Both the position numbers and the translations under genes were made by a program. Source: an uncultured Hormoscilla sp. (lineage in GTDB: Bacteria > Cyanobacteriota > Cyanobacteriia > Cyanobacteriales > Desertifilaceae). From it: 64,000 nt of DNA. Below the pieces are notes generated by a model. It was not told where the DNA came from. It searched no databases and worked only from the letters and a program-made list of their open reading frames with translations. Below, one piece after another: positions 5,489 through 64,000 of this stretch. The stretch lies in contig OZ001293.3 in assembly GCA_963921275.4 (NCBI GenBank), positions 5,120,001 to 5,184,000 on the forward strand, in the 5' to 3' direction. Within the stretch, counting starts at the first letter, position 1; each line of letters begins with the position of its first letter.

Positions 5489-5986
5489 TCCGACTCAGTC
5501 AGGTACTTCCCCGACTGACTGCTGCATTTCGCCCCAGCAGTCAGGTACTTCCCCGACTGAGTGCTGCATTTCACCTCAGTAGTCAGATACCTCCCCGACT
5601 GAGTGCTGCATTTCACCTCAGCAGTCAGATACCTCCCCGACTGACTGCTACATTTCACCTCAGCAGTCAGGTACTTCCCCGACTGAGTGCGGCATTTCAC
5701 CTCAGCAGTCAGATACCTCCCCGACTGACTGCTACATTTCACCTCAGCAGTCAGGTACTTCCCCGACTGAGTGCGGCATTTCACCTCAGCAGTCAGATAC
5801 CTCCCCGACTGACTGCTGCATTTCACCTCAGCAGTCAGGTACTTCCCCGACTGAGTGCGGCATTTCACCTCAGCAGTCAGATACCTCCCCGACTGACTGC
5901 TGCATTTCCCTCAGCAGTCAGATACCTCCCCGACTGAGTGCGGCCTTTCACCCCAGCAGTCAGGTACTTCCCCGACTGAGTCGGGG
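5489..5986. repeat. Tandem 42-nt repeat array, about 12 units, partly alternating A/B units
   Basis: CATTTCACCTCAGCAGTCAG(G/A)TAC(T/C)TCCCCGACTGA... units; the minus-strand ORF 5413-5868 reads the repeat. Confidence 0.9.
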
Positions 5987-6218
5987 ACTCTATTCATTCA
6001 GTTAGAGAGTCTTCCAGAAGAAATTTACACGGCCAACTTTATTTATTCTCAAGCAAAATAGATATCGCACGTGCATATAATTCTTCAAGAATGACAAACG
6101 AGGAAGATCGCGTCGTGGGTCACAAGTAGTGATTTTAGCACCAGCAAACCCTTTACGACGTGCTGTTATCAACCCTACAACTGCCACCAAGCGGTGACAA
6201 TTGTCTTTTTTCACCAAT

Positions 6219-7053
<835 letters not shown>

Positions 7054-7090
7054 TGTACTATATTAGTCGTAATGGGTTAGGATAAGTGCT

Positions 7091-18233: not shown

Positions 18234-18547
18234 TTAAGTATCCTCATCTGGTCAGAACAGATCCGAAAAAAATGGCTGTTTGGGCTCTCCCGAGGCTCTG
18301 GCCACAAAAAAACCCCAGCCCGGAGGCTGAGGATAATTTTTCAGGGTGCATCTACTTTTTAACCTACATTCCGCACGACAAAATGTATTACGGAATGATT
18401 ACAAAAAACTTGTGATTTTACGAACCGAAAAGTTCATATCTGTATAAATAAATATACGTCCTGTTTACTAAATTCTCAGAGCTAGTACCGATTAAAAAAA
18501 GTAGTGCAATAGTAATCTAACCGATAAATTAATTACTTAGCATGTTA

Positions 18548-21113
18548 GAGCCTGTTTTAAAAGTTTATGAAGGTATAAATTAAGCCAAGGGCCGAAGCAT
18601 GAGTCTAATCATAGCAATATAGACCATCATTTCTGAATTTTCTCTCAGGTGCTCGTAGTCTTTACTTAGTCTGCGAAACCAATTAAGCCAGCCAAAAGTT
18701 CGTTCAACAACGAGCGCGTTTTTTCAATAAAACAAAACATGAAAGTTTGTTTCGGTCGCAACACAACCTGAATAACGAGCGCGTAATTTATCCATCGCCC
18801 ATTGCATAAAAGGATTACCACTATAGCCGCCATCCACCCAAACCAAATAAAGACGACTGACTTTTGGGCCCATAAGCTTTACTTTTTCCAATACCTGTTG
18901 TTCCCCTTCTCGCTCTGGAACACGCTTCTGCCGTCACCAATACGCGCGTAAAACCAGACGATAATTACTCAATCAGTCCCTTGACCTTTTTAGCCGCATC
19001 AAAGCCTAATGCTACTAAGAAATCAATTTACGCTCCCCAACTGTAGCTCTTATATAACTTGCTTGCGAGCCCGATCGCGTGAGCCTTTGAGAGCTGGGAA
19101 AACTTGAGGTCGTCTCCTTACTTTACGAGGTTCATGTTTTACTTTATTTGGCTGGTGAGGTAATCGGCACGATCGCTAATCTCGTTATCAGCCAATCTTC
19201 TAATTTATTTTCTGTTATCACCCATTGAGGAACACCCTGGGTCAAAATATCTCGCAATCGTCTCCAACAGCAACTAAAGCTTAATTGATTAGGTTTGATA
19301 TCTGCTTTGATTTCGGCTTTTAACATTAAAGCGCAAATCAAATTATAAGTTAATAAACCTGCTGCTAATTCCTTACGAAACATTTCTGCTGTTTTGACAT
19401 CAAACTCTTCCATCTCCAATCTCCAAGGTAGTTTTTATATAGCGGTAATCTACTTCTACTTGCCACTTCTGTCCATATAGTTCCACCAATTCATCAATTG
19501 AGTATACTTACTTATCCATCAAATTTGTAAATAAATATAAATCTATCGGTCTAAATCCCTTCTGGCGTAACTGCACGTAAATTATTCGCCCAGTTAGAGG
19601 AGATTTTGCAAGTCCAGGCTCAACTTTTGTTGTTGGCTCTGCTTTCCATATTACCTGGGACTCTTGGCCACTAGATAAGGAACCTTTCTGTGATGATGTT
19701 TTTAGTAGTTTACGAGCTGTTCGTTGTTCTAATCGTAGCAATACTTTCTTGCCATAAAAATTAGTTACCTGAACAACTCTGTAGACTCCGAATGCTCTAT
19801 CTCCCATATAGATGCTGTCAGCTTCTGGGTCTTGTTCCATAATCTGACCAACCATTGCTGGTTCACTAATTCCCTCTTCTACAAAAGCAATTACGGTTTG
19901 ACTAAATAGACAGCAGGCTATCAAAGACTTAACAACCACCCAATGACTCATTCCTTTTCCATTGCTTGCTTGGCGATAGGTTGACAGTAAATCCGGAGTG
20001 GGTTGAAGTCTAAAAGTTGTTCCATCAAGTAATCTAACTGAATGACATTTCCATAGCTTCATCATCATCAGCTTCTCTTATCCAGTTTAATATAGTCTCT
20101 ATTACCTTATTTAACGCACTCATTATTACTAATAGTAGCATTCGTAATCTTCCTTGTATATAACTAGATGTACTTTCGGATTTTAATCAGCGCGAAACAG
20201 GAAACTGGTTAGGGTCTTCTTTGTCTAAACCATCAACTGCGCCCGTGTAAATAATGACTAATGACCGCATCACAGGTCGCTGTTTAAACGTTGATATATT
20301 AATCCCCATAAAATTATTAATGGGGTTAGCACTCGCCAGTATAGCCTGACTTTAGAGTTTTTTACCCATTGTTTAATAACTGTGCGTGAAAAGATTTCGC
20401 CAAAAATGGCTAATAAGTCTTCAATTGATGCTTTGACGGTTGTAGTTTGTCGTTGTACCCAAGCGGGCTCGCGATCGCATGCCATAATAGTTGATTCCAA
20501 ACGTTCCTTTACCTATATTCTATCAGAGGTAGTTCACCAACGTCAAGTGTTTTAGTTAAAATTATTAACTGGCATAGGTTAGAGAGCTTTTTAAGTAATA
20601 ATACTCATGAGTATACCATAATTTGCTCAAAATTACCATAAAAATTGATTTCTTAGTAGCATTACATCAAAGCCCACTTCGGAATGCACTATTGTATCGG
20701 TAGCAACACTTTGGCTATCAAGAATTGCCTTAGAAGGGCTGATCTAACGACCGGCAGCAACGCGGGTCCAACTGTGTAATAGATCCCTAATAGCGTAGTG
20801 CCTAAGAGGCGCCAATGGAGAAAATAAGTGTAAACCCTTTGCCAAGCCGGAAAACCCCCAGGCAAGTCCCGCCATTTACACCCTTGAGTAACCAGATAAA
20901 AAATGGCATTAAGGACGGACAACATACAGACTTCTCGGGGACGACCTCCCGGTTTCGCCGGTGAAATCAGCGGTTTAATCAATTCATACTGGTCTTGAGT
21001 CAGATCACTGGAATATACTTTAGTCATGGCTCATATGGGACTACAGATTTCCGTATCTTTAGTATAAACCCTGTGGGCTTTTTTACTCCCCTTGTTACTT
21101 TTAAGACATCCTC
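18548..21113 (-). mobile_element. IS5 family (IS1031-like) element, degraded, split by an IS4 insertion
   Basis: MTKVYSSDLT...GGRPR...GCKWRDLP; imperfect IRs GAGCCTGTTTTAAAAGT/ACTTTTAAGACATCCTC; TTA duplication. Confidence 0.85.
19007..20664 (-). mobile_element. IS4 family element, frameshifted transposase
   Basis: Perfect 23-bp IR TAATGCTACTAAGAAATCAATTT; 10-bp target duplication CATCAAAGCC; LLDGTT and MGDRAF DDE fragments. Confidence 0.88.
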
Positions 21114-21313
21114 TTACAACTTGTCGTGCGGAAAGTGGGTTTTAAGTATCCTCATCTGGTCAGAACAGATCCGGAAAAAATGGCTGTTTGGGCTTTTTCG
21201 GGACGCTCGCAGGCAAAAAAAACCTCAGCGAGGGGTGTATAACAGTTAAAAATTTGGCGTTGCACTTCGGACGGGATGATAGACATAGTTGCAATAGTTT
21301 TAAACCTACACTA

Positions 21314-23165
<1,852 letters not shown>

Positions 23166-24724: not shown

Positions 24725-26608
24725 CTATCCGCTGGATTTATTACTGGGTTTGATAAGGGTTTTGAATCCTAGCGGTTTCCCGTGTCCGTTCTTGCCCGTG
24801 TAATATTTTCCTACCTCATATTGCCTTACATTGAACCCTAGGAAGTCAAACCCCGGGTTTTCGCCGTGTAGCGTATGAGTTATTTTTGTCTTTTCAGGCT
24901 TGAGTTCTAGTCCAATCCCTTTTAGCCACTCTGCTATAACCTCCTGCGCTTCTTCTATCTTTTCTCTTTTGTCATGCATCACCACAAAGTCATCAGCATA
25001 TCTGACTACCGCCAGCTTTTGTTTTTCTCTTTGTGTTTCTGCTAGTTTCATTACCACTTCTTCTAGCCCATGTAGGGCTACATTCGCTAGTAATGGTGAT
25101 ATGACTCCTCCCGTACCCTCTTCGGTTGCATACCATTCTTTCTTGTCTATCACCCCGGCTTTTAACCATGCCCGTATTTGTCTACGGATTGGTGATGTTG
25201 TATTCAATTTTTTCATTAGCGCTTTATGGTCAATTTTGTCGAAGCGTCGAAGCATTTCGCTATGTCAGCATCTCGGATGGGGTCGAGCCGGGAATCGCTT
25301 CCCGACCCTCCCTTGAGGAACCGGACTTGCGATTTTCACCGCATCCGGCTACTGGGTACTAGGCCCTTTTCATAGGTAGACTTAATAGGAATTACTTCCG
25401 TTAGCCCTTGCCGCCTGTCTTTTCTTCCCTTTCCTGGTTTAGCGAGTGGTTGTTCTGATAACCGTTAGTATCACCATTTTCAAGTCAGTTTTACCAGTTA
25501 TCCATACCTTATCCTCCACTTGCGTTTCGGATTAGTTCCGTGGCTTTTTAGGATTACTCATTCCAGCAGCTTCCTAGTATCACCGACCCACGTCAGCGCT
25601 GGCTACCCAGCATCATCTACATTACTGTAGATGTTATCCCAGGAATTACCCCGGGCATTCGCTTCTTGGGCCATCCCTCCCCCCGTGGCTTGCGCTTAAC
25701 ATCTAACTTGTCCTGATGGACAGCACACGAGAGGTTACTTCGTTCCCTAACAACATTTCGCGATACCTTTAGGTCCACACTATACCCCGGGAGCTATTTG
25801 AGTACTATATTAGCCAGAGTCTAAAACTAATACTAGCTACCATTTCCTTTTTAGGCCAGCGCATATAGCCTTATTTCGCTGGTTCCTTATAACGAGGCTT
25901 GCACATGTTTGCCTGCTCTAACCTTGGATATCTTTCCTAGCGGCGTCACCGGCTTAGGCTGCCAGTTATCCTACATTTGAGTCCTCGCTTAGCACCACGA
26001 TGATGTCGCTTCGTAGCACCGAGGACCGGTGTCACCCCCGTACCTGGGGGGAGGGGAATTTAACCCTCATGCGGTCAGAGTTCCCGGCTAATGAAACCGG
26101 GCTAGCGTTCCGTGTTTGACCACGTTAGGCTAGAACGAATCGCACAGACCCACTTAGGTTTTCATTTGATGCTGAGAAATATTGCTCCGATTGCATCGTG
26201 GCATCCTCTTCCCGGTCTGAACCCCTAGGAGTTTCCTTCCATATACGCTTCCCATTCAGGATAACTGCGCAATCTTTAGTAACCCCTGTGTCGCACGGTC
26301 GTACATCGTCGGTATCCCCCAATGGACGCTTTTCGTCTCTTCCAGGCTTCGGTATCCACACTCGTCGTGCTGGTTTGGCCTTGTTTGAGATTTCTATCCG
26401 TCCTACCAGTTCTGTCCTTTGCTTTGGTGTCAGTGATTTCACACCATCCACTCCGGCAGTTTTCTTTCCCTGGTTGTCTTGTGTTACCTGTCTTACCGCT
26501 AGACTTTTGGCTGCCCGGGATTTTCACCAGTAACCTCTGGAGTCTGCGAACTGTCCGCTTATCACCAAGTTGTGCCGCTCTGTAAATTCTCAGAAGCAAC
26601 TTAAAGAC
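24725..26608 (-). pseudogene. ltrA: Group II intron reverse transcriptase remnant (frameshifted, truncated at both ends, interrupted by an ORF-less intron)
   Basis: RT0/RT1 (GVKSLTPKQR, RRVWIPKPG), YADD, FDFLGF; closely similar to 32742-34352 and 61905-63359. Confidence 0.9.
25275..26145 (-). mobile_element. ORF-less group II intron, variant B (871 nt), in sense within the RT remnant
   Basis: Near-identical to 60973-61843; ends ...CTCGACCCCATCC. Confidence 0.95.
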
Positions 26609-27625
26609 ACGTGAGTTCGACGGACTGGACAAAAAAAAAAGGCGGAGACTGGGTTTGAACCATTCCACCCCAGTCTGAACCCACCATGAGTCAAATTGTA
26701 TCGCGCCTGGATGTCACCCGCATCTTCTGTGAACTAGACGACTTCTGCCAAATGTTCGATTTTTCCGGAACGGTGCGCCACTGGGAAGAACAACCGCAAC
26801 TGCCCTCCATGCCTGGGGAACGATGCTGTCGTTCGCGCATGAGCCTCTCAGAAATTATGACGATTGCCATCGCTTTTCATGGCTCGGGCTTCCGTACGTT
26901 CAAAGAGTTTTACACCCTGTGTGTTCTCCCCCATTGGCGCGGAGCCTTTCCCAACTTGGTCAGCTATAATCGCTTTGTGGAATTGATGCCGTGGTGTCTA
27001 ATGCTATGAAGTTGTTTTCTTCATACTCGAAAAGGAGAAGTTACAGGCATTTCCTTTGTTGATTCTACACCCATAGAAGTTTGTCACCCTCGTCGTGCTC
27101 ATAACCATAAGGTGTTCAAAGGGCTAGTCCACTGGGGGAAAAGCTCAACTGGCTGGCATTTCGGATTTAAATTGCATTTGATTATCAACGAGCGCGGAGA
27201 GTTACTAGCCTTCAAGCTCACGCCAGCCAACACTGACGACCGTAAACCTGTACCAGAGATGGCTCAAGACTTGTTTGGAAAACTGTTTGGAGACCGGGGA
27301 TATGTCTTGAGAGACCTATTCGAGAAATTATACGAACAAGGTCTCAAATTGCTAAATCGAAGCGAAATATGAAAAATCGCTTGATGAAAACGAGCGATAA
27401 AATCCAGCTCCGAAAGCGGGCCGTCATTGAATCAGTCAACGACCAACTCAAGAACATCTGTCAAATCGAGCATTCTCGCCACCGGAGTGTCTTCAACTTC
27501 TTGGTCAACCTGCTGGCCGGCTTGGTGGCCTACACCGACGCCGATAAAAAACCTCGCCTCGATCTGGAGGTCAAAGGCTTACCAGCACTACCTCCTGCCA
27601 TTTTATAGTTTCGTCGAATTCACGT
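26609..27625 (+). mobile_element. IS982 family element (defective; stop plus frameshift)
   Basis: IRs ACGTGAGTTCGACG/CGTCGAATTCACGT; three transposase fragments. Confidence 0.92.
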
Positions 27626-32655: not shown

Positions 32656-34371
32656 GTGCGATTCGTTTAGTGTAAACATACTTGACACAAGTCAAGTATG
32701 GGGACCACTAGCTAGGTATCATTAGCCTAGACAACTTATGGATGATGGTGGTGAAAGTCCACCCCTCCAGGTGCAGGAGTGAAAGCATAACCCCTACGGT
32801 AGCGATGGCATCAATCCGTAAAGCGGGGTCACTAACCCCAAAGCAGCGTCTGGAACTGGTAGGACAAATAGAAATCTCAGGCAAAGCCAAACCAGCTCGT
32901 AGAGTGTGGATACCAAAGCCAGGGAGGAACGAAAAACGTCCACTAGGAATACCGACAATGTACGACCGCGCAACACAAGGGTTACTAAAAATTGCGTTAG
33001 AACCGGAGTGGGAAGCGTATATGGAAGGTAACTCATACGGGTTCAGACCGGGAAGAGGATGTCACGACGCAATCGAAGCAATATTCATCAGCATTAACAA
33101 AAAACCAAAGTGGGTATTAGATGCCGATATTGCCAAATGCTTCGATAAGATTGACCATAAAGCGCTGATGGAAAAATTGAATACGACATCACCAATCCGT
33201 AAACAAATACGGGCATGGTTAAAAGCCGGGGTGATAGACAGGAAAGAATGGTATGCAACCAATGAGGGGACACCCCAAGGTGGAGTCATATCACCGTTAC
33301 TGGCAAACATAGCTCTACATGGGCTAGAAGAAGTCGTAATGGAAATTGCAAAAACACGAAGCGATAAAAGCAAACTGACAGTAGTCAGATATGCCGACGA
33401 ATTTGTGGTAATGCATGATGATAGGAAAAAGATAGAAGAAGCGCAAGCGGTCATAGCAGAGTGGCTAAAAGGGGTTGGACTAGAACTCAAGCCTGAAAAG
33501 ACGAAGATAGCTCATACGCTACGCGGAGACAAACCAGGATTTGATTTCCTAGGATTCAACGTCAGGCAATATGAGGTAAGTAAAAACAGAAGCGGTAAGC
33601 GCAGAAATGGACAACCCCTAGGCTATAAAACCTTCATAAAACCCAGTAAAAAATCCATAGGTAAGCACAAAGAACGGTTACTAGAAATAGTAACCAGGCA
33701 TAAAGCGGCCTCACAAGCTGCCCTGATAATTAAACTCAACCCGGTAATACGTGGATGGGTCAACTACTTCAGGACTGGAGTAAGCAAGGAAATTTACTCA
33801 GAGATGGATAATTACCTATGGGAAATCCTGTGGAATTGGGCAAAAAGAAGACACCCCAACAAGTCAAGACATTGGATAGCCGAGAAATATTGGTCAGTTG
33901 ACCAGAACAAAAAATGGCAATTCCAAGATGGGACAGAAAAAGGGGAAGTCAAGCTATACCGACACAGAAGTGTAGAGATAGTAAGACACATAAAGGTCAA
34001 AGGAACAGCGAGCCCATACGACGGAAACCTCATATACTGGAGCACAAAGCTAGGTAGGAACCCCGAGTTAAATAACAAAGTAGCAAAGCTGCTCAAAAGG
34101 CAAAAGGGGAAATGCCAACATTGCGGATTAACGTTTAAGGATAGCGATAGTTGGGAACTGGACCACATTAAGCCACTTTCATTAGGTGGTAAGGACTGGT
34201 GGGATAACCTACAACTGTTGCACAAACACTGCCACGATACAAAGACTGCCAGCGATGGCAGTAGCCGTATCCATGACAAGGATGGCATTACTGAGGAGCC
34301 GGATGAGGTGAAAAGCAGATCGTCCGGTTTTGAAGACGAGTCAGGAAGGTGACTCCCTGGCTTAGTTTAAT
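32656..34371 (+). mobile_element. RT-encoding group II intron (chloroplast-like class) with a large internal deletion
   Basis: GTGCGATTCG start, domains V/VI ending GTTTAAT; domain I fused directly to RT0 near 32829. Confidence 0.9.
32742..34352 (+). pseudogene. ltrA: Group II intron RT/maturase/HNH, N-terminally deleted, YADE instead of YADD
   Basis: RT domains, X domain and C-terminal HNH (CQHCG...DHI...LLHKHCH); the first ~29 aa are read from intron RNA sequence. Confidence 0.85.
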
Positions 34372-36310
34372 AAAATTCAGTAGATTTACGGCAAAAAATT
34401 TTGGAGACTTATCAAAATGAAAAAATCACCCAGAAAGACCTAGCCAGGGTTTCTCTGGGCTTTATAATTAAACTATTCCGGCAATATCGAGAAACAGGAG
34501 ACATAGCTCCAAAACCTTTTAGGTGAGGTGTCAAACTGAAATTGAATCCCGAGCAACTGGTAATTTTAGCAGAATTGATAGAAAAAAAAAGATGCTACTT
34601 TAGAAGAACTGTGCGAATTACTGAAAGAAAAAACGGGAGTGTTGATTAGTAGATATACAATGGGAAGGATGACAAAAAAGCTAAATTTTACATGGAAGCA
34701 AAAAACTTTGCACCCTAATGAAAAAGAGAGCGACAGAGTGCTTTCTTTGAGAGTATAGTTCTGGGAAAAAATGCGCTCTATCCCAGTCAAGGACTTGGTT
34801 TTCATTGATGAGTATGGAGTGAATTTAGGTTTTGTCAGATTTTTGGCTCGGGCATTGTGCGGTCAAAGAGCTCGGGGAAATCGTCCTCATAAACGAGGTA
34901 AAAATGTCTCAATGGGGCTATTGCTAAAAAAATAATTGTCGCATCTACTAAGATTTTAGGAGCAGCCGATGGTTTAGTTTTTGAAGCTTTTATTATCAAT
35001 AAGCTAGTTCCTAAAGCCAAGTGCTCATGTAGTGCTAGATAATAGTAGCACTCATAAAGGAAAAGAGATTGAAAAAGCAATTGAAGAAGCCGGATCATCA
35101 TTAGTATTTTTACCTCCTTATTCTCCTGAATTTAATCCAATAGAAAAATTTTTGTTCTTCGTAAAATTAATTATTCGTTCCCTCAAACCGAGAACTTATC
35201 TTGAGTTACAATCAGCTATAAAAAAAACTTTTGATCTCGTCTCGCTAAAAGATATTGAGAACTGGTTTGTACATTGCTGTTATGGTACTACAGTAATTTG
35301 AGAAACGCTATATCATCTTCTAGAGTTATTAACTGTATCCTCTTTCCCCATATGGGTGGTTTCCCACGTCTGAGCTTGGTTGGTGTCTTTAGTTTTTCGC
35401 CACCTTTGAGCGGTTGTGTAAGGCATGATCTCGTTGGACGACAAGGAAAAATAACGTCAGACAGCTGCGCTCATTCGGGAAAGCTCCTATTTCATCAGAC
35501 TTCCTGGGAAACTCTTCTTTCCAAGCGTTCGAGTAAGTTAGAGGTTCTCATCCTACAATGTAACTCAGGCTACGGTGGCATAAGCTATATCAGTCAACTA
35601 ATGGGTTGCCATGCCCACACCATTCCCCTTGGGCTTAAAGAGTTGTCCGATGACCAAGCGATGAGCACTAGGGGCATTCGTCGCCCTGGGGGTGGAGGCA
35701 AAAAAGCATTGGAGCAGATAGAGAGATTATATGAGGCATTCCTTCGAGTTGTTGAGGCTCATACAGCGGGTTCGCCAATGGATGAATCGCTCAAATGGAC
35801 GCATCTGACTCGTCAGCAAATTGCCGACTTACTCGCCCAAGAAGAAGAGATTAACGTGAGTGTGACCGTGGTAGATAAATTGTTGAAACAGCATAATTTT
35901 CGTCGCCGTAAGGCATTCAAGACCAAGGCCACTGGAGACCACCCGGAGCGCAAGGAGCAATTTGAGAAGATTGCTGCCTTGGTGGAAGACTATCAAGGCG
36001 CAGGCAATCCGGTTATGAGTGTGGATACAAAAAAAAAAGAGTTAATCGGTAAGTTGTTTCGCGATGGCCATGCTTATACCCAGAAACCGATCGAGGTGTA
36101 TGACTACGACTGGCCATCTTTAGCAACGGGTGTGGTGATTCCCCACGGTCTCTATGACATGACTCATAATATTGGGTATGTGCGGCACGTCTCGATATAC
36201 AAGTGAATTTGCCTGCGATTCCATTCATTATTGGTGGCTCACCTACGGATGCGTACTTTATCCATTGGCTACCTCCATCTTGCTTTTGTGTGATGGTGGT
36301 GGTAGTAATA

Positions 36311-37869: not shown

Positions 37870-38881
37870 ACTCAAGTTGCGACCTATAAAAATTGGATAC
37901 AAAAAGCTATGATAAAGAGAATTATTTTCAACTCTAATCCCTTAGATGTAACAGCATGAATTGACTTGGGAAACAAATTGGTGATTCGACTAAAACAGGT
38001 TTCAACTTGTTTTCTTGTTACTTTTTGTATATATTCAAAACAAGAATATTCTTTTCTTTTTGAGTTCTTTTTTCGCAAAGGTTTTAACATTATACTTGAC
38101 GACTCTTTTAGTAAATTCTCTAATTGATAATCATTATAAGCTTTATCTCCATAAACTATTGAATTTGATGGTAAGTCAAAGCCAAAAGATTGCAAAACTT
38201 TAACATCATTATAACTACCAGGATCTAGATAAAATTCTATTGGCTTTCCATTTTTGTTTACCAACATATGAACTCTTAATCCATAAAAATAACGTTTTTT
38301 ACTGGCAATATACCCTCGATATTCTTCCTTGTTATAAATTTGGCATCTATCAATCCTAATATTATCACATACTGGCACCGGGAAACTATCAAGAATATAT
38401 TCTTGACCCGGATTGAGCTCTTTAAATGTTTGAGCTATAACTTGGAAGAAAAACATCCAAATTGGTTCCTCAATATTGTGTAATCGACGATTGAACCTAC
38501 TTTTACTTAACAGATTTTTTATATACTTGTGTTGGACCATAAATTGACAAGAGCGATCGTGGTGTCCTCCGAAAAAATATGCAGCAACTAATCCGACTGT
38601 CATCACTTCGGCATTGTTCATTTTTACTTGTGGATCTTCTTTTATATTTAACGCTTTTAGTAGCTCGTCACAAAGAACAAAAATTGTTGTAATCATATCT
38701 TCCATCATCTACATCCCCCAGCAATTAACTATTATTTTAGTACATTATAACCTATAAACAGCCAACCCGCCGTCTAGCACAAAAAAAATATAATTTTGTA
38801 TCAAAAGCTACGAAATATCCCAAATATCTGTAAAGTCTAAGTGGGTAATTCATATTTTTTTTAATAGGTCGCAACTTAGGT
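37870..38881 (-). mobile_element. IS982 family element with apparently intact transposase (37884-38708)
   Basis: 274-aa ORF with LDSFP, YFYGLRVH, YGDKAY, RKQVET; terminal IRs. Confidence 0.92.
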
Positions 38882-39386
38882 TAATAGTTCTCGAGCCTAC
38901 CTGTTCAAGGAATGTCTTCAAGCCCTCAGCAATAAGTTGGGCATTGAGATTCGCATTGCCCATTATCCCCCCTATACCTCCAAGTACAATCCCATTGAGC
39001 ATCGGTTGTTTCCCCATGTCGTGAAGGTGTGATTTTTGAAAGGGTGGAAACAGCCAAAGACTTGATGGCTACAGCTACAACCAAAAGGGGACTACAGGTG
39101 TTTACCAAGGTGATTCCCAGAGTTTACCAAACAGGTAAGAAAGTGGCAGTAAGCAAAATATGAAAGTCGTGAACGTGTCATTTTTGAAAGGGTGGAAACA
39201 GCCAAAGACTTGATGGCTACAGCTACAACCAAAAGGGGACTACAGGTGTTTACCAAGGTGATTCCCAGAGTTTACCAAACAGGTAAGAAAGTGGCAGTAA
39301 GCAAAATATGAAAATTGTCTTCCATGAGGTTCTGCCTCAATGGAACTACACCGCGAAGCCACAGCCAGGTTAACTTTGATAAGTTA

Positions 39387-51052: not shown

Positions 51053-51914
<862 letters not shown>

Positions 51915-52166
51915 TAGCCGTCATCTCCGAGTCGTGGTCGGGCGAATTGAACCGCCCTAAACTGTCAATTAATCTAGGGGTCGGAACGAAGAGAAACGTT
52001 GTCGGGGTCTGTGGACAGGTCGAAACCACAGTAGGCTGGACGAGCAGCGGAAATCTCAGCAGCGGGTAGGACTTTTGTGTCTTCTGGGAGCGCTAGTCGC
52101 ACAAAAGAGAAGACACAGGAGCGTAACTGCTCCGAGGTAATCAGAACATTCTTGACAGAGTAGAGT

Positions 52167-53584
52167 ATGGTTAGGCGCGTGAGGAAAACTCATAGTGAAT
52201 CTTGGAAGAATTTGCCCTGGAAGAAATTCCGGCGCAATCTTTTTCGCCTGCAATGTCGAGTGTGGAAAGCTATTAGAGCGGGAGACAAGGCCCGAGGGAA
52301 GATCCTGCAAAAGCTAATTCTGAAGTCCCGGAGTGCAAGATACATAGCCATCCGTCAGGTAACGCAGCTCAACGCCGGGAAGAAAACGGCGGGGGTAGAT
52401 GGCAAAACATGCCTCACTTTCCCAGAAAGACAAGAGCTAGAGAAACTGCTAAAAGAACAAGCCAAAACTTGGTCACATAGCCGTTTACGGTCCCTCCCAA
52501 TTCCCAAAAAGGACGGGACGACCCAAATGCTCAAAATCCCAACGATTAAAGATAGGGCATGGCAATGTCTTGTCAAATATGTCATCGAACCTGCCCATGA
52601 AGCACTTTTCTACGCTAGAAGCTACGGGTTCAGACCCGGACGCTCAACGCACGACTGCCAGAAAAACCTATATCTATGTCTGAGGTCATTCGCCCACGGA
52701 CTGGATAAAAGAGTTCTGGAATTGGATATCGAGAAGTGTTTTGATCGTATAGACCATAACTTCCTGATGAAACACACTATAGCCCCTCAATGCGTGAAGC
52801 TAGGGCTATGGAAATGTCTCAAGGCAGGAGTTAATCCGGAGTTCCCCTCGCAGGGAACTCCACAGGGAGGCGTGGTAAGTCCGGTACTGGCGAACATTGT
52901 CTTAGATGGCATCGAAAACATCCACCTCAAGCCAGAAGATGATGCTGATGTTATCCGGCAACAGGTCAAGGAATTCTTAGCGCTAAGAGGGTTGAATATA
53001 AAAGCACTTCATACGAGGCTCGTGGCCGCGACAGATGGGTTTTATTTTCTCGGCTGGCATTTCAAAGTGCAACAGAACTGGAAGTTCAGATGCGTCCCTT
53101 CAGAGGACAATTATGAGGCTTTCCGCCAAAAGGTCAAGCACATTGTCAACAACTCTAATTATGGTGATCTCACCAAAGCGCAAAAGCTATCTCGCCTAGT
53201 AAGAGGATGGAGGAACTACCACCGCTACTGTAAGTTAAGTGGCGCCAGGTTCTCACTGTACTTCATTGCACACAGGGCGCAGATGCCTTAATCAAAAAGG
53301 CATTCCCAAGCGTACCCTATCACGAACACAAGCACGTCAAGGTCATAGGTGATAAATCGCCTTTCGACGGGGACATAACTTACTGGTGTCAAAGAAACTC
53401 CAAATATTACGAAGGTCTCACGGCAACAGCGCTAAAGAGACAGGACTATACATGTGGACACTGCGGAATGAAACTACTAGATGGAGAGAAGGTACAGCTC
53501 CATCACATCGATGGAAACCACGACAATTGGAAGCTGACAAACTTGATGGCAGTACATAAGTCGTGTCATGATTATATCCACATG
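52167..53584 (+). pseudogene. ltrA: Group II intron RT/maturase/HNH lacking the YADD segment, frameshifted near 53285; last codons at 55393-55410
   Basis: GKKTAGVDG, SYGFRPGRS, GTPQGG present; ENIH directly followed by LKPEDD; HNH CGHCG...LHHIDGNH in the next frame. Confidence 0.88.
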
Positions 53585-55392
53585 GTGCGATTCGTTCAGG
53601 CGTAAACTGGCGACGGTGAAGTCTGGTCTGGTTTCATTTGCCGGATAACTCTGGTTATCATGGGGGTTAAATTCCCTCTCCCCAGGTGTGGGGGGTCGAG
53701 GGTACTACCGGTCCTTAGTGCTGCGGGGTCACATCGCCGTGGTGCTCCGCTAGGACTTAAATGTAGGATAGCTGGCAGCCTAACCCAGTGACGCCGCTAG
53801 GAAAGATGCTCATGGTTAGAACAAGCGAACCTGTTAAAGCCTCGTTACATAGAACCAGCGGAATAAGGCTTATACGCTGGCCCAAAAGGGAAAATGGTAG
53901 TTAGTGTTGGTAGTCATCTATTGCCAGCATCGCACCCAAAGAACTCCCGGGGTATAGCAGGGGCCTACAAGCATCGAGAAATGATACCAGGGAACGAAGT
54001 AACCTCACGTGAGCTGTCCCCATTTGGACCAGTTAGATGTAAAGCGCAAGCCGCGAAGAGGAAGGATGTTCTAAGAAGCCAACGCCTGGGGTAATGCCTG
54101 GGATATGCAGACGTAGGACGGATATGGTAAGAAGCCTTTGGTGAAAGTAGCCCTAACACGTCGCAAAACTTAGGAGAAATCCAAAAGTATGAATATGGAC
54201 TAGGGCGTGTCATCAATTAAGCCATATTACAGCTGCCGCGAGGTAGATGGCACCCAAGAAATTGCGAGCCGTTTTATCGTAGCGTGTCGCCAGAGCCCTG
54301 TATTGCTTGAGTTTTTGGAATAGATTTTCAATTAGATGCCGCCACTTGTACATTTCTTCATCGTATTCTCTGTGTTCTGTGCGGTTACTTTTTGGAGGAA
54401 TGACAGCCATCCAATCCGCCTCTTTCAGGCGCTCGAGCACACGTTGTTCCGCATCATAGGCTTTATCTGCAAGCAGCGCGCCAATCTCACCGATTTTATC
54501 CAATAGCACGTCAGCGCCTTTCCCGTCGTGGGCTTGGCCAGGGGTAAGATGAAATCCTGTGGGATTGCCTTGGGCAATCGCAAGTGGCATGAATCTTTGT
54601 CGATAGTCCCCCTTTACTACGGCCTATGGCTTGGGTTTCGCACGTATCTGAGGGTGTTTTTTTTTGCACCCGCACGCTCGTTGATGGGCACGCAGGATGG
54701 TGGCATCAATCGCGGCGTATTCGTTATCGGCGTCTGAGGCCAAGACATCGAATACCTGCTTCCAAACTCCCTTTTCAGACCAACGGGATGGCGGGTATGA
54801 ACAACCCGAAAATCCCCAAAACACTCCGGTAAATCCCGCCAGGGAATGCCAGCACGATATCGATATAACACGGCAGAACACGAATAATCTATTGTTCTTG
54901 GCTGTAGCGCCTGGGTCACCCTCTTTACCAGGTAAAAGGTGTTCGATCCGTTCCCACTGGTCGTCTCGCAAGCCATAGCGTCTCATATCATGCCCTCTTG
55001 ATTGTTATTGCTGGATAAGGACTCCATACCGTATCCATCTACTTCTGTCAAGCAATTTGATTGATGACACACCCTAGAGTCTCAGCCGGGTAAAGTTCAG
55101 AGCCCCGATAAATTGCCAGAATGGGGAAATGTTAGAGAAGAGCGGCTAGAATGGTTTGCTGAACTACCCTCCGCGATCGCGCAGCGTGCGCGCAGCGCAT
55201 ACCTTCCGGAGCTGAAATCATTAACGGTCCAATAGGATTGACCATAAGGGGTAAAATTACAGAGGGTAAGGGGAAACGGGGTGACCTAATTATTGATGAT
55301 GATATGCCTAAGGACAAGCCCCAGCGGTGAAAGTCGCAAGTCCGGTTCCGCTCTTGGAGGGTTGGGGAGTGATTCCCAGCTCGACCCCGACC
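53585..55392 (+). mobile_element. ORF-less group II intron, variant E, interrupted by IS5, domain V degenerate
   Basis: GTGCGATTCG start, ...CTCGACCCCGACC end; removal gives HDYIHM|SKSID*. Confidence 0.88.
54203..55074 (-). mobile_element. IS5 family (IS427-like) element, frameshifted
   Basis: IR GGGYGTGTCATCAAT with TA duplication; LRDDQW, IDAT, LADKAYD, RHLIENLF..LK.YR..ATRYDK. Confidence 0.9.
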
Positions 55393-55583
55393 AGCAAGTC
55401 AATTGACTAGGTTATCGGGAGCCGGATGCGGGGAAACTCGCACGTCCGAATCTAAGAGGGAGGTGCGGGGTATAACAGCCCCATCGACCCTACCAAGGCG
55501 ATCGCCTGGGAAAACTCCGCTCCCAGATGCTGGTACTGGTCCGTGACTTGCTCAAAAGCTTTCAAGTCCTGAAAATCCAGCTG

Positions 55584-59559: not shown

Positions 59560-59745
59560 GGTAGTGTGTCAAGATTTAATTGATAGGTAAAGACTCTTGA
59601 GCTTTATCCGAGCATCAGTTGTCGTAAATGGCCAGGATATCTGTAACTGCTCACAGCAATAAATAAAGCTTATTGAGAATGGATAACTGGCGATGCTCAT
59701 TGCTATAAACATCCACTGTGTAAAATCGCTCCTTACCATTGCCAT
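59560..59745 (-). pseudogene. IS630 transposase 3' remnant
   Basis: FTTTDARIKLKSLY C-terminal motif plus terminal repeat. Confidence 0.7.
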
Positions 59746-60204
59746 ATAAGAATTTCAGCTCTCAGGACTACTGTACAACTTCCCCTCGGCTGACAGAGAT
59801 AGGCTTTCCTTGGGATTAAACTAAGCCAACGGGTCACCCCGCCGACTCGTCTTCAGAACCGGACGTGAGACTTTCACCTCATCCGGCTCCTCAGTTTCGC
59901 CATCCTTGTCATGGATACGGCCTTTGTCACCATCTCTGGCAGACTTTACATCATGGCAATAATCATGCAGCAACTGTAGGTTGGTATACCAGTCTTTACC
60001 TCCTTTAGAAACTGGTAGAATATGGTCAACCTCCCATTTGTCGCCATCTTTGAATTTCAGTCCGCAGTGCACACACTTACCATCCTGCTCTTTTAGCAGT
60101 CTGATAACTCTAGCGCTCACATCCGGGCTTTTTCTCAGTCTTTTGCTCCAATAAACCAGATTACCGTCAAACGGGCTAGCTGTCCCCTTAACCTTTACGT
60201 GTCT

Positions 60205-61946
60205 GTGCGATTCGTTCTAGCCTAACGTGGTCAAACACGGAACGCTAGCCCGGTTTCATTAGCCAGGAACTCTGACCGCATGGGGGTTAAATTCCCCTCC
60301 CCCCAGGTACGGGGGTGACACCGGTCCTCGGTGCTACGAAGCGACATCATCGTGGTGCTAAGCGAGGACTCAAATGTAGGATAACTGGCAGCCTAAGCCG
60401 GTGACGCCGCTAGGAAAGATATCCAAGGTTAGAGCAGGCAAACATGTGCAAGCCTCGTTATAAGGAACCAGCGAAATAAGGCTATATGCGCTGGCCTAAA
60501 AAGGAAATGGTAGCTAGTATTAGTTTTAGACTCTGGCTAATATAGTACTCAAATAGCTCCCGGGGTATAGTGTGGACCTAAAGGTATCGCGAAATGTTGT
60601 TAGGGAACGAAGTAACCTCTCGTGTGCTGTCCATCAGGACAAGTTAGATGTTAAGCGCAAGCCACGGGGGGAGGGATGGCCCAAGAAGCGAATGCCCGGG
60701 GTAATTCCTGGGATAACATCTACAGTAATGTAGATGATGCTGGGTAGCCAGCGCTGACGTGGGTCGGTGATACTAGGAAGCTGCTGGAATGAGTAATCCT
60801 AAAAAGCCACGGAACTAATCCGAAACGCAAGTGGAGGATAAGGTATGGATAACTGGTAAAACTGACTTGAAAATGGTGATACTAACGGTTATCAGAACAA
60901 CCACTCGCTAAACCAGGAAAGGGAAGAAAAGACAGGCGGCAAGGGCTAACGGAAGTAATTCCTATTAAGTCTGTGCGATTCGTTCTAGCCTAACGTGGTC
61001 AAACACGGAACGCTAGCCCGGTTTCATTAGCCGGGAACTCTGACCGCATGGGGGTTAAATTCCCCTCCCCCCAGGTACGGGGGTGACACCGGTCCTCGGT
61101 GCTACGAAGCGACATCATCGTGGTGCTAAGCGAGGACTCAAATGTAGGATAACTGGCAGCCTAAGCCGGTGACGCCGCTAGGAAAGATATCCAAGGTTAG
61201 AGCAGGCAAACATGTGCAAGCCTCGTTATAAGGAACCAGCGAAATAAGGCTATATGCGCTGGCCTAAAAAGGAAATGGTAGCTAGTATTAGTTTTAGACT
61301 CTGGCTAATATAGTACTCAAATAGCTCCCGGGGTATAGTGTGGACCTAAAGGTATCGCGAAATGTTGTTAGGGAACGAAGTAACCTCTCGTGTGCTGTCC
61401 ATCAGGACAAGTTAGATGTTAAGCGCAAGCCACGGGGGGAGGGATGGCCCAAGAAGCGAATGCCCGGGGTAATTCCTGGGATAACATCTACAGTAATGTA
61501 GATGATGCTGGGTAGCCAGCGCTGACGTGGGTCGGTGATACTAGGAAGCTGCTGGAATGAGTAATCCTAAAAAGCCACGGAACTAATCCGAAACGCAAGT
61601 GGAGGATAAGGTATGGATAACTGGTAAAACTGACTTGAAAATGGTGATACTAACGGTTATCAGAACAACCACTCGCTAAACCAGGAAAGGGAAGAAAAGA
61701 CAGGCGGCAAGGGCTAACGGAAGTAATTCCTATTAAGTCTACCTATGAAAAGGGCCTAGTACCCAGTAGCCGGATGCGGTGAAAATCGCAAGTCCGGTTC
61801 CTCAAGGGAGGGTCGGGAAGCGATTCCCGGCTCGACCCCATCCACCTATGAAAAGGGCCTAGTACCCAGTAGCCGGATGCGGTGAAAATCGCAAGTCCGG
61901 TTCCTCAAGGGAGGGTCGGGAAGCGATTCCCGGCTCGACCCCATCC
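60205..61946 (+). mobile_element. ORF-less group II intron variant B, outer copy (768 nt + 103 nt)
   Basis: Span 1742 = 2 x 871. Confidence 0.95.
60973..61843 (+). mobile_element. ORF-less group II intron variant B, inner copy (871 nt)
   Basis: Inserted at TATTAAGTCT|ACCTATG of the outer copy. Confidence 0.95.
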
Positions 61947-64000
61947 GATTATTTCAGTTTCAGAGTATCGGTTTAGCTTCATTCCTCCATCTTCTTTAGA
62001 CTTGCCAGCGAACCTCCACCGGTCTTTCCCGGTCATACCCCAGTACTTACTAGCAATCCATTTGCCCGTTTTGTTAGGATGTCTTCTCTTTGCCCATCGC
62101 CATAACAACTTCCATAAGTAGTTATCCATAGAGCTGTAAGTTTCTTTACTTACCACCGTCCTATAATAGTTGCTCCATCCCCTTATCATCGGGTTTAGTC
62201 TTGCTATTAAGGCCGTTTGCGGTGCCCCTTTATGGCGGCGAACTATCTCTGATAGCTGCTCTTTATGATTCCTTATGGATTTATCGCTAGGCTTGATTAG
62301 GGTCTTGAATCCTAGGGGGGTTCCGTTACAGAGTTTGCCGCTTCTGTGTTTCCCTACTTTATATTGTCGGATATTGAACCCTAAGAAGTCAAATCCAGGG
62401 CTCTCTCCTTCCAATGTGTGGGATATCTTCGTTTTCTCGGCTTTTTGCTCCAGCCCTATTCCCTTCAACCACTCCTCAATCACTCCTTGAGCTTCCTCAA
62501 TCATCGACCGGTCATTATGTATTACCACAAAGTCATCCGCATATCTTACTACGGTTAACTTCTCCTTCTCTCTTTTTGTGTGAGCGAGACCCATTACTAC
62601 CCCTTCCAGCCCATGTAAAGCTATATTGGCTAGTAATGGAGATATAACCCCACCTTGGGGAGTTCCGGCTTCTGTGGATTCCATCCTTCCCCGGTCCATC
62701 ACCCCAGCTTTTAGCCATGCTCGTATTTGTTTACGGATTGGTGACGTAGTATTCAATTTCTTTAGGAGCGCGGAATGGTCAATTTCGTCGAAACACTTCG
62801 CAATATCCGCATCTAACACCCATTTCGATTTTTGACTGATGCTAGCGAATATCGCTGCAACTGCATCATGACATCCCCTACCTGGTCTAAACCCGTAGGA
62901 ATTGGCTTCCATATACGCTTCCCATTCAGGCTCTAGCGCTTCTTTAACCAATCCCTGAAGTGCGCGGTCGTGCATCGTTGGTATTCCTAATGGCCGCTTC
63001 TCCTCCCTTCGTGGCTTCGGTATCCACACTCTTCGTGTGGCTTTTGCCTTCGCCTTTCGAGTAACTTTAATTTGACCTACCAGTTCGATACGTTCTTTTG
63101 GGGTCAGTGCTTTCACACCATCCACACCAGCCGTCTTCTTTCCCTGGTTTTGTTGTGTTACCTGCCGTACCGCTATCATCTTCGCGGACCATGACCTATT
63201 TAGTAATCCTTGGAGCTTACGAACCTTCTGCTTATTACCTTCCAGTGCCGCTCTGTAAATTCGCTTTTGCAGCTTAAAAACTATCCTTTCCAGCTTTCGC
63301 CAGGCGACAGTCTTCCATTCATACTCTTGTCTTTCGACTAAGTTCCGTGACATATTCACTACTACTTACAACTTCACAATTGACGAGACCGTGAGGGCGT
63401 CAGCTTATCCTATCCATTACAGACAGGCATTTGCTTCTCCACTCAATCTCCCCCAGTTGCGTCCTGCCTTCCGGAGAGCAGATGTTACGCCTGTGGTGGC
63501 TACTCCATCTATCGACCGGTGATGGAGAGTGCTACAACCGGGTTACTTCGTTCCTACAGATGATTGGTCGTAACCTTAGACGGGTTCTCTACGCCGGGTT
63601 TATTGTCAGTGCTTATTGGTCGGGTATACATCCGCCAATGACCAGTATCCTTTCCCTTTTTGGGCCAGTGTATCAGCCTTATTACACTGGATAGGCTTTA
63701 CGACGTTGCAAACCTTCGCTTTACGCTCATCATAGTTACTTGCTCGACGATGACCGGTCTAGGCTCCCAGCCATAGCGCCTTTCCTTCCCGCTTCACGGA
63801 TTGATGCCATCGCTACCGTGGGGAGGGTGCTGTCACTCCTGCACCTGGAGGGGCGGGCTTTCACCACCATCACCTGTAAGTTCTCGGGACTTACGAAATC
63901 CCGGTAGCGGTCCCCCTCCTTGACTTGTGTCAAGTTAGTTTACGCTAAACGAATCGCACGTATACTAGCTTATATGACCTTTACTGCTGCACTACAGACC

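Follow-up and report, generated by a model that had tools for sequence, protein, structure and literature searches.

The present analysis shows that positions 60205-61946 of the window, by which we mean the whole 64,000-nucleotide stretch of DNA from an uncultured Hormoscilla sp. that was analysed, hold a group II intron lying inside a copy of itself. The finding is real, and the core reading of an earlier note on this DNA is correct. Sequence comparison resolves the segment into parts of a single ORF-less element of 871 nt, here called B. With X for B positions 1-768 and Y for positions 769-871, the layout is X (768 nt), XY (871 nt) and Y (103 nt), all on the forward strand. The 5' part of the outer copy (60205..60972), whose left boundary is taken from the empty site in a paralogous intron, H4, comprises domains I-III and the 5' part of domain IV, and is identical to the inner copy at 767/768 positions. 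It is followed by the complete inner copy (60973..61843, GTGCG...ATCC) and then by the 3' part of the outer copy (61844..61946), which supplies the remainder of domain IV together with domains V and VI and is identical at 103/103 positions. The sole difference between the copies lies at B position 61 (A at 60265 in the outer, G at 61033 in the inner copy; 870/871 identical), and the A at 60265 is private to the outer copy. A repeat search returned the matching spacings, 768 and 103. The junctions read AAGTCT|GTGCG and ATCC|ACCTATG, and neither can be slid, since the flanking bases differ on each side. A complete intron with its own ends is thus found between B 768 and B 769 of the outer copy, which makes the arrangement a twintron; as the outer and the inner intron represent the same element and the insertion falls within domain IV (B 567-789), it is a homo-twintron. 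The earlier note had read it as such, proposing the layout B[1-768]+B[1-871]+B[769-871], a single substitution between the copies, and inner-copy ends GTGCG and ATCC within AAGTCT|ACCTATG. Each of these claims is borne out: the layout by exact matches (768 + 871 + 103 nt), the substitution at 60265 versus 61033, the ends by the fixed junctions together with empty-site comparisons, and the homo-twintron reading by the exact ends, the domain IV position, a unique EBS match and covarying EBS.

Only the insertion of B into B at 768|769 gives X-XY-Y in one step. A rearrangement at the DNA level that involved no retromobility, by two separate tandem duplications or by unequal recombination, would be in line with the 103-nt and 768-nt units each being present as direct repeats. 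However, a single tandem duplication leads to XYXY and not to XXYY, and two duplications would need exact intron termini as well as one shared internal point, and we regard this explanation as hardly credible. It could also be argued that reads from several near-identical B copies were misjoined during assembly, insofar as the 64 kb contain at least three copies at ∼99.9% identity and such repeats confuse assemblers. Misassembly joins homologous positions, whereas here an intron end meets an internal point with homology no longer than GTCT; this internal point coincides with the single site that EBS1 and EBS2 predict, and the window holds many other near-identical repeats without breaks. An artefact is in our judgement very unlikely.

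The ends of B were defined by comparison with two independent empty sites. For the outer copy, the paralogue H4 is continuous through GTGTCT|TACTAT, and for a third, solo copy (25275..26145, reverse strand) both H4 and the host intron of the twintron, H, are continuous at the site. Both comparisons give precise boundaries and no target duplication. Consequently, B is delimited as GTGCG...ATCC, 871 nt, inserted free of duplication, which is the outcome expected of reverse splicing. The three B copies all start with GTGCG, in keeping with the conserved 5' end GUGYG, and the solo copy differs from the inner copy by 1 base, at B position 79. Domains V and VI are intact in both copies of the twintron, and both domain V/VI segments score 44.4 bits with Rfam RF00029, above its gathering score of 40 (61765-61841 in the inner copy, 61868-61944 in the outer copy, forward strand). 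Mapped from the inner copy, domain V of the outer copy occupies 61869-61904 and its domain VI 61909-61941. At E<=0.1, Rfam returned domain V families only over 59700-64000, with no D1-D4 family. The branch-point A of group II introns is bulged in domain VI, 7-8 nt from the 3' end. In the consensus fold presented below, domain VI contains an unpaired GA (columns 372-373), with the bulged A at B 863, 8 nt before the 3' end. An ORF scan found no frame of >=60 aa on B's strand inside B, and so no RT/maturase encoded by the intron. Judged by these features B is a non-autonomous, ORF-less group II intron, and both copies in the twintron may be competent to splice. The plasmid collection, searched in near and distant modes, gave no match.

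The host intron H (59813..63949, reverse strand) measures ∼2.39 kb without the insert and 4.1 kb with it. It has its 5' end, GTGCG, at 63949 and its domain V at 59852-59892 (RF00029, 57.6 bits); by analogy with B, its exact 3' end would fall at 59813-59815. The twintron is antisense to H (+ versus −) and interrupts H's reverse-transcriptase gene, separating an N-terminal part of 471 codons (61947..63359, reverse strand; RVT_N, RVT_1 and GIIM, Pfam E 1.6e-32, 7.1e-42 and 8.4e-25) from a C-terminal part with the HNH endonuclease domain (59821..60204, reverse strand; Pfam HNH, 5.2e-14). When the twintron is removed by its coordinates, the IEP frame of H runs through 598 codons to a stop, with the junction exactly after codon 471. 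The B insertion is the only lesion in this gene, which argues for a recent event. Because of its antisense orientation, B cannot restore the H transcript by being spliced out. The earlier note makes no mention of this setting. The solo copy, whose self-site is free, has inserted in sense orientation into the RT gene of another, H-like intron (24733-27625), at a position other than in H. Thus, all three B insertions in the window are inside group II introns. Introns amount to ∼17.5 kb, or ∼27% of the 64-kb window, by rough coordinates.

With regard to the enzyme that could act on B, the IEP of H matches PDB chain 6me0_C (E=1.9e-95), which we take to be the T.el4h protein of Thermosynechococcus. 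A T.el4h-type IEP, related through this match, is the candidate partner for mobilisation in trans, yet the IEP genes of the window are all either broken or truncated. H and H2 have interrupted genes, and a truncated ORF lies at 52167-53291. H4 (32657-34371) has, in comparison with H, lost ∼680 nt that span most of domains I-III and the RVT_N part; an open frame of 536 aa remains, which begins within the domain I remnant and includes RVT_1, GIIM and HNH. As the window codes for no intact IEP, the helper enzyme of B must be coded elsewhere in the genome.

Related introns were sought with a domain V 22-mer common to the B and C families, which identified at least 14 loci from two Hormoscilla MAGs. 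B itself is not among the matches listed; the nearest of them, B', shares 91.4% identity with it and is found at L007 2442-3315, with a second copy in L010. We then compared the recognition elements of 17 introns, from the window and these loci, that begin GTGCGATTCGTT, by setting the aligned hexamer of each against the 6 bases upstream of it. H4 was dropped for its deleted domain I and the intron at 51053 for a gap in the hexamer alignment, and a split intron in L010 was entered with the hexamer of its 3' half. Over the remaining 15 introns, the cognate mean for EBS1 was 5.33/6 as opposed to 2.22 in 198 non-cognate pairings, only 2.5% of which reach 5. The signal for EBS2 was weaker, with a cognate mean of 3.73/6 (range 0-6) versus 2.26 (198 non-cognate pairings). 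In B, EBS1 is AGACTC (B 324-329; 60528..60533 in the outer and 61296-61301 in the inner copy, forward strand), which lies in a hairpin loop and covaries with the 6 nt upstream of each intron. EBS2 is TAAGGA (B 257-262; 60461..60466 and 61229-61234, forward strand), situated in a variable block between conserved flanks. That EBS1 lies at 60528-60533 and pairs 5/6 with AAGTCT had been suggested in the earlier note. The pairing is as described, and the assignment is now backed by the covariation over 15 introns.

From these assignments, EBS1-IBS1 and EBS2-IBS2 pairing with the 5' exon is predicted at each of the three B insertions, less strongly for EBS2. Scored on IBS1 and IBS2, the solo site has 6/6 (one G-U) and 4/6, the outer site 5/6 and 4/6, and the self-site 5/6 and 5/6 (one G-U). 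The self-site consists of IBS2 TTCCTA (-14..-9) and IBS1 AAGTCT (-6..-1). It is occupied in the outer domain IV (60959..60972, forward strand; insertion point 60972|60973), and free and intact in the inner domain IV (61727..61740, forward strand; IBS1 61735-61740, point 61740|61741).

The setting of this site was examined in a fold derived from seven aligned family members, comprising B, one relative from Hormoscilla, three introns of C type found in the window and two that came from other loci. The consensus structure has 70 pairs, with 96.5% of cells paired and compensatory changes in 25 pairs, values that none of 500 shuffles equalled, and sliding the partners by 1-3 columns reduced pairing to 31-51%. 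This control should be interpreted with some caution since the structure was derived from the very sequences tested. The domain directly 5' of domain V is closed by a seven-pair helix, TACTAGG (B 567-573)/CCTAGTA (B 783-789), which is 100% paired and has compensatory changes in 3/7 pairs. Domain IV so delimited by the covariation-supported fold is 223 nt long, and that of the inner copy corresponds to 61539..61761 (forward strand). The insertion point 768|769 is inside it, directly 3' of a four-pair helix, GGGC 739-742/GTCT 765-768 (helix 8), which is paired in 7/7 sequences with compensatory changes in 2/4 pairs; at the free self-site of the inner copy, GTCT 61737-61740 pairs with GGGC 61711-61714 in this conserved helix. 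The domain IV of B aligns with the start of H's IEP reading frame and with its final codons, which argues that B is a deletion derivative of an IEP-coding intron and makes “vestigial”, the term used in the earlier note, a fair description. Domain IV is the usual place of the ∼1.8 kb ORF of group II introns, and the outer ribozyme should accordingly tolerate the inserted copy.

Of the 854 positions of B that were scanned, 768 alone reaches IBS1 >=5 and IBS2 >=4, and GTCT occurs nowhere else in the element. The insertion point thus agrees with the prediction from base pairing, and the role that the earlier note assigned to a self target site is supported: this position alone fits both EBS1 and EBS2, and it is inside domain IV. 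The same threshold, however, is reached by 297 of 127,966 positions on both strands of the window (0.23%). At this background ∼2 such sites would be expected by chance in 854 positions, and the self-site needs no special explanation. Moreover, with ∼297 equally good sites in the window and 3 of them used, base pairing alone does not explain the choice of site.

The relative B' is informative in this respect. It keeps AAGTCT|ACCT in domain IV but carries EBS1 TCTAGA and EBS2 AGTAAA, a set that matches the flanks of B' itself (AGTAAA pairs 6/6 with the L007 flank) and not the AAGTCT|ACCT site, whereas the EBS set of B would match the B' site with 5+5. Since the sequence is kept in B' despite a different EBS set, the self-site is an old structural sequence, and the self-match depends on the EBS set that is carried. 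The “built-in” homing site of the earlier note is accordingly overstated, although the match is indeed unique within B.

According to a stronger hypothesis, self-homing would have been selected: EBS1 and EBS2 would be tuned to the conserved helix of B's own domain IV, and the copies would serve as harmless landing pads for ever deeper nests. The site is the unique best match in B, it belongs to a structurally conserved and hence stable helix, insertion into domain IV should be harmless, and the EBS set of B fits the site while that of B' does not. If the hypothesis were true, the family would multiply through deeper nests (X...X Y...Y) that leave host genes untouched, nests with identical splice sites and catalytic domains would yield alternative splice products, and B would exemplify a self-propagating safe-harbour strategy of a non-autonomous bacterial retroelement. 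Apart from the number of sites expected by chance, it is opposed by the match itself, which has a mismatch in each of IBS1 and IBS2 and is no better than those at B's other two sites, and by the scarcity of nests. In the window one of the three B self-sites is occupied and no nest of depth 3 was seen, and among the matches listed each of the 14 related loci has a single domain V match, with none doubled. Nothing in the data requires selection for self-homing, and we consider it unlikely. The self-match is most simply a by-product of recognition that is short (∼12 nt) and tolerant of mismatches. Deeper nests are nevertheless possible, as an insertion destroys the outer site and the inner copy supplies a new one. 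Of the repeatable nesting envisaged in the earlier note, the fresh target at 61740|61741 is therefore present, but its repeated use is not seen in these loci.

We hypothesize, and consider it likely, that B was mobilised in trans and reverse-spliced into H, and that a later copy then entered domain IV of the resident B. An RT/maturase supplied in trans, probably from related H-type (T.el4h-like) introns, would splice and mobilise B, which would enter DNA by reverse splicing where EBS1 (AGACUC) and EBS2 (UAAGGA) can pair. One B copy would first have landed antisense in the otherwise intact IEP gene of H. A second copy would then have reverse-spliced at B 768|769, the single fit to its own EBS1 and EBS2 and part of domain IV, producing X-XY-Y in which the innermost copy again presents a free site. 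The clustering of such insertions inside other introns may reflect survival in dispensable DNA. With respect to the order of events, two positions vary among the three B copies, and at each of them the inner copy agrees with B'. The outer and solo copies have one private change each, and these single substitutions may hint at the proposed order.

A variant of this account would have the twintron form elsewhere and move into H as one 1742-nt intron by means of the outer ends, a possibility raised for the twintrons of T. elongatus (PMC2882425). In favour of it, the outer copy keeps domains I-III, V and VI. Its private substitution, on the other hand, changes a C-G pair to C-A in a domain I hairpin, as read from the sequence, and the window contains no second composite copy. 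Although nothing in the present data distinguishes the two, which fit alike, joint movement appears to us distinctly improbable, and we retain the successive insertion of two B copies as the main model.

Nested introns are of course not new. Nested arrays in Methanosarcina acetivorans, reportedly described by Dai and Zimmerly in 2003, are archaeal and said to consist of related rather than identical introns; the outer and solo copies of B, too, sit in IEP ORFs. Such Methanosarcina arrays are also cited in the report on Thermosynechococcus elongatus by Mohr, Ghanem & Lambowitz (2010, PMC2882425). That system resembles ours in that it is cyanobacterial and has an ORF-less inner intron in domain IV, TeI3 (F3) inside TeI4 (F1). 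As described there, the inner copies are identical while the outer ones have diverged, related IEPs mobilise the introns in trans, and the introns prefer other mobile elements as targets. The outer intron of T. elongatus belongs to a different, IEP-coding family and is entered between the first two ATGs of the ORF, whereas in our twintron the outer and the inner intron are the same ORF-less element and the site is in a remnant of the 3' end of the ORF.

A close parallel comes from the mitochondria of lycophytes (Lycopodiaceae), where the ‘zombie’ twintron cox1i1149g2 holds an inner intron, cox1i1149g2ii652g2, in its own domain IV, according to Zumkeller, Gerke & Knoop (2020, PMC7049729). There, as here, a group II intron is found in domain IV of a copy of itself and the outer intron is expected to tolerate the insert. 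Unlike B, the lycophyte case is one of a plant organelle, it is old, the copies have diverged, and the inner intron is described as being devoid of the bulged A and having weakened EBS-IBS pairing (PMC7049729). The twintron reported here is in a bacterium, its copies are 870/871 identical and both look intact, and it is ORF-less and antisense within a third intron.

A plastid inner intron (2015, PMC4476101) occupies a domain IV target of related outer introns; there, the inner intron is itself IEP-coding, and its hosts are different introns with IEP remnants. The group II twintron in Tery_4732 of Trichodesmium erythraeum is cyanobacterial like that of B, and sequential splicing has been demonstrated for it (Pfreundt & Hess 2015, PMC4649490). 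It differs in being made up of two different IEP-coding introns, with the inner one in domain I, within a protein-coding host gene. A survey mentions nested introns in T. elongatus and Wolbachia (PMC8919778). In a literature search that covered mainly open texts, we found no bacterial intron inside an identical copy of itself and no paper joining Hormoscilla with a group II intron, and the search for introns inserted into themselves returned plant-mitochondrial work and a review only.

Self-invaded and nested twintrons have thus already been published (PMC7049729, PMC2882425), and the B twintron leaves present views of group II intron mobility unaltered. It illustrates cleanly, in a bacterium, a behaviour of which other genomes had already provided examples. 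Its value lies in that it is a very young and fully legible case of a group II intron entering itself, with recognition elements and target that can be read directly. It is also a natural substrate for asking whether an outer intron can splice with a whole intron in its domain IV, how one transcript sorts identical splice sites, and whether insertion into introns represents targeting or mere survival in dispensable DNA. Furthermore, Hormoscilla becomes a third cyanobacterial lineage with dense nested introns, alongside Thermosynechococcus and Trichodesmium.

Several further nests were observed in the window and in the related loci. An inverted duplication of part of an H-like intron (21314-23165 and 26609-27625) is 98.9-99.3% identical between its copies, one of which holds a C-type ORF-less intron (22029-22863) while the other is uninterrupted at 26910|26911; this C-type intron is 99.8% identical to the intron at 6218-7054. 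In the nest at 51937-55493, the truncated RT gene at 52167-53291, with RVT_N and a portion of RVT_1, precedes an ORF-less intron (53585-55392). This intron is broken by an IS (DDE transposase pieces 54213-54976, reverse strand), has lost half of its domain V, and stops 27 nt short of the AGCCGG in domain V of the host (55417-55493). In Hormoscilla sp. GUM202 (L010 783-2581), the copy of a B relative is split in its EBS1 loop by a ∼930-nt ORF-less intron that is antisense and has exact ends, GTGCG...GACC. Two arrangements come from Hormoscilla sp. SP12CHS1. In one, an H-like intron adjoins with its 3' end the final 25-27 nt before domain V of a C-like intron (L013 1-180); in the other, a C-like intron ends and the terminal 190 nt of an H-like intron follow after ∼10 nt (L012 2245-2663). 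From these two arrangements nesting goes both ways between the H-like and C-like families. A recurrent hot spot ∼27 nt upstream of domain V, as might be suspected from B in B, the intron at 53585-55392 and L013, was rejected, for the homologous coordinates differ by several bases.

The surroundings of the introns also include other mobile and repeated DNA. Transposase genes or fragments occur at 20689-21027, 35274-36206 and 37884-38708 (DUF4096, ISAZ013-type DDE and DDE_Tnp_1). They lie among housekeeping genes (FtsH, RecO and an NTRC-like thioredoxin reductase); this part of the genome belongs to the chromosome but is heavily colonised by mobile DNA. Tandem repeats were found at 5496-5981 (∼84-nt units, 89-95% identical) and at 39018-39313 (two 148-nt units, 98.6% identical). 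The cyanobacterial sRNA family NsiR1 is matched at 18304-18357 (reverse strand) with 42.7 bits, only just over its threshold of 39, and 21142-21229 resembles this region, being 85% identical to 18234-18319. Finally, a Hormoscilla contig among the related loci (L003 1345-1368) has a CRISPR-DR28 match of 36.6 bits, against a threshold of 35, ∼1 kb from an intron.
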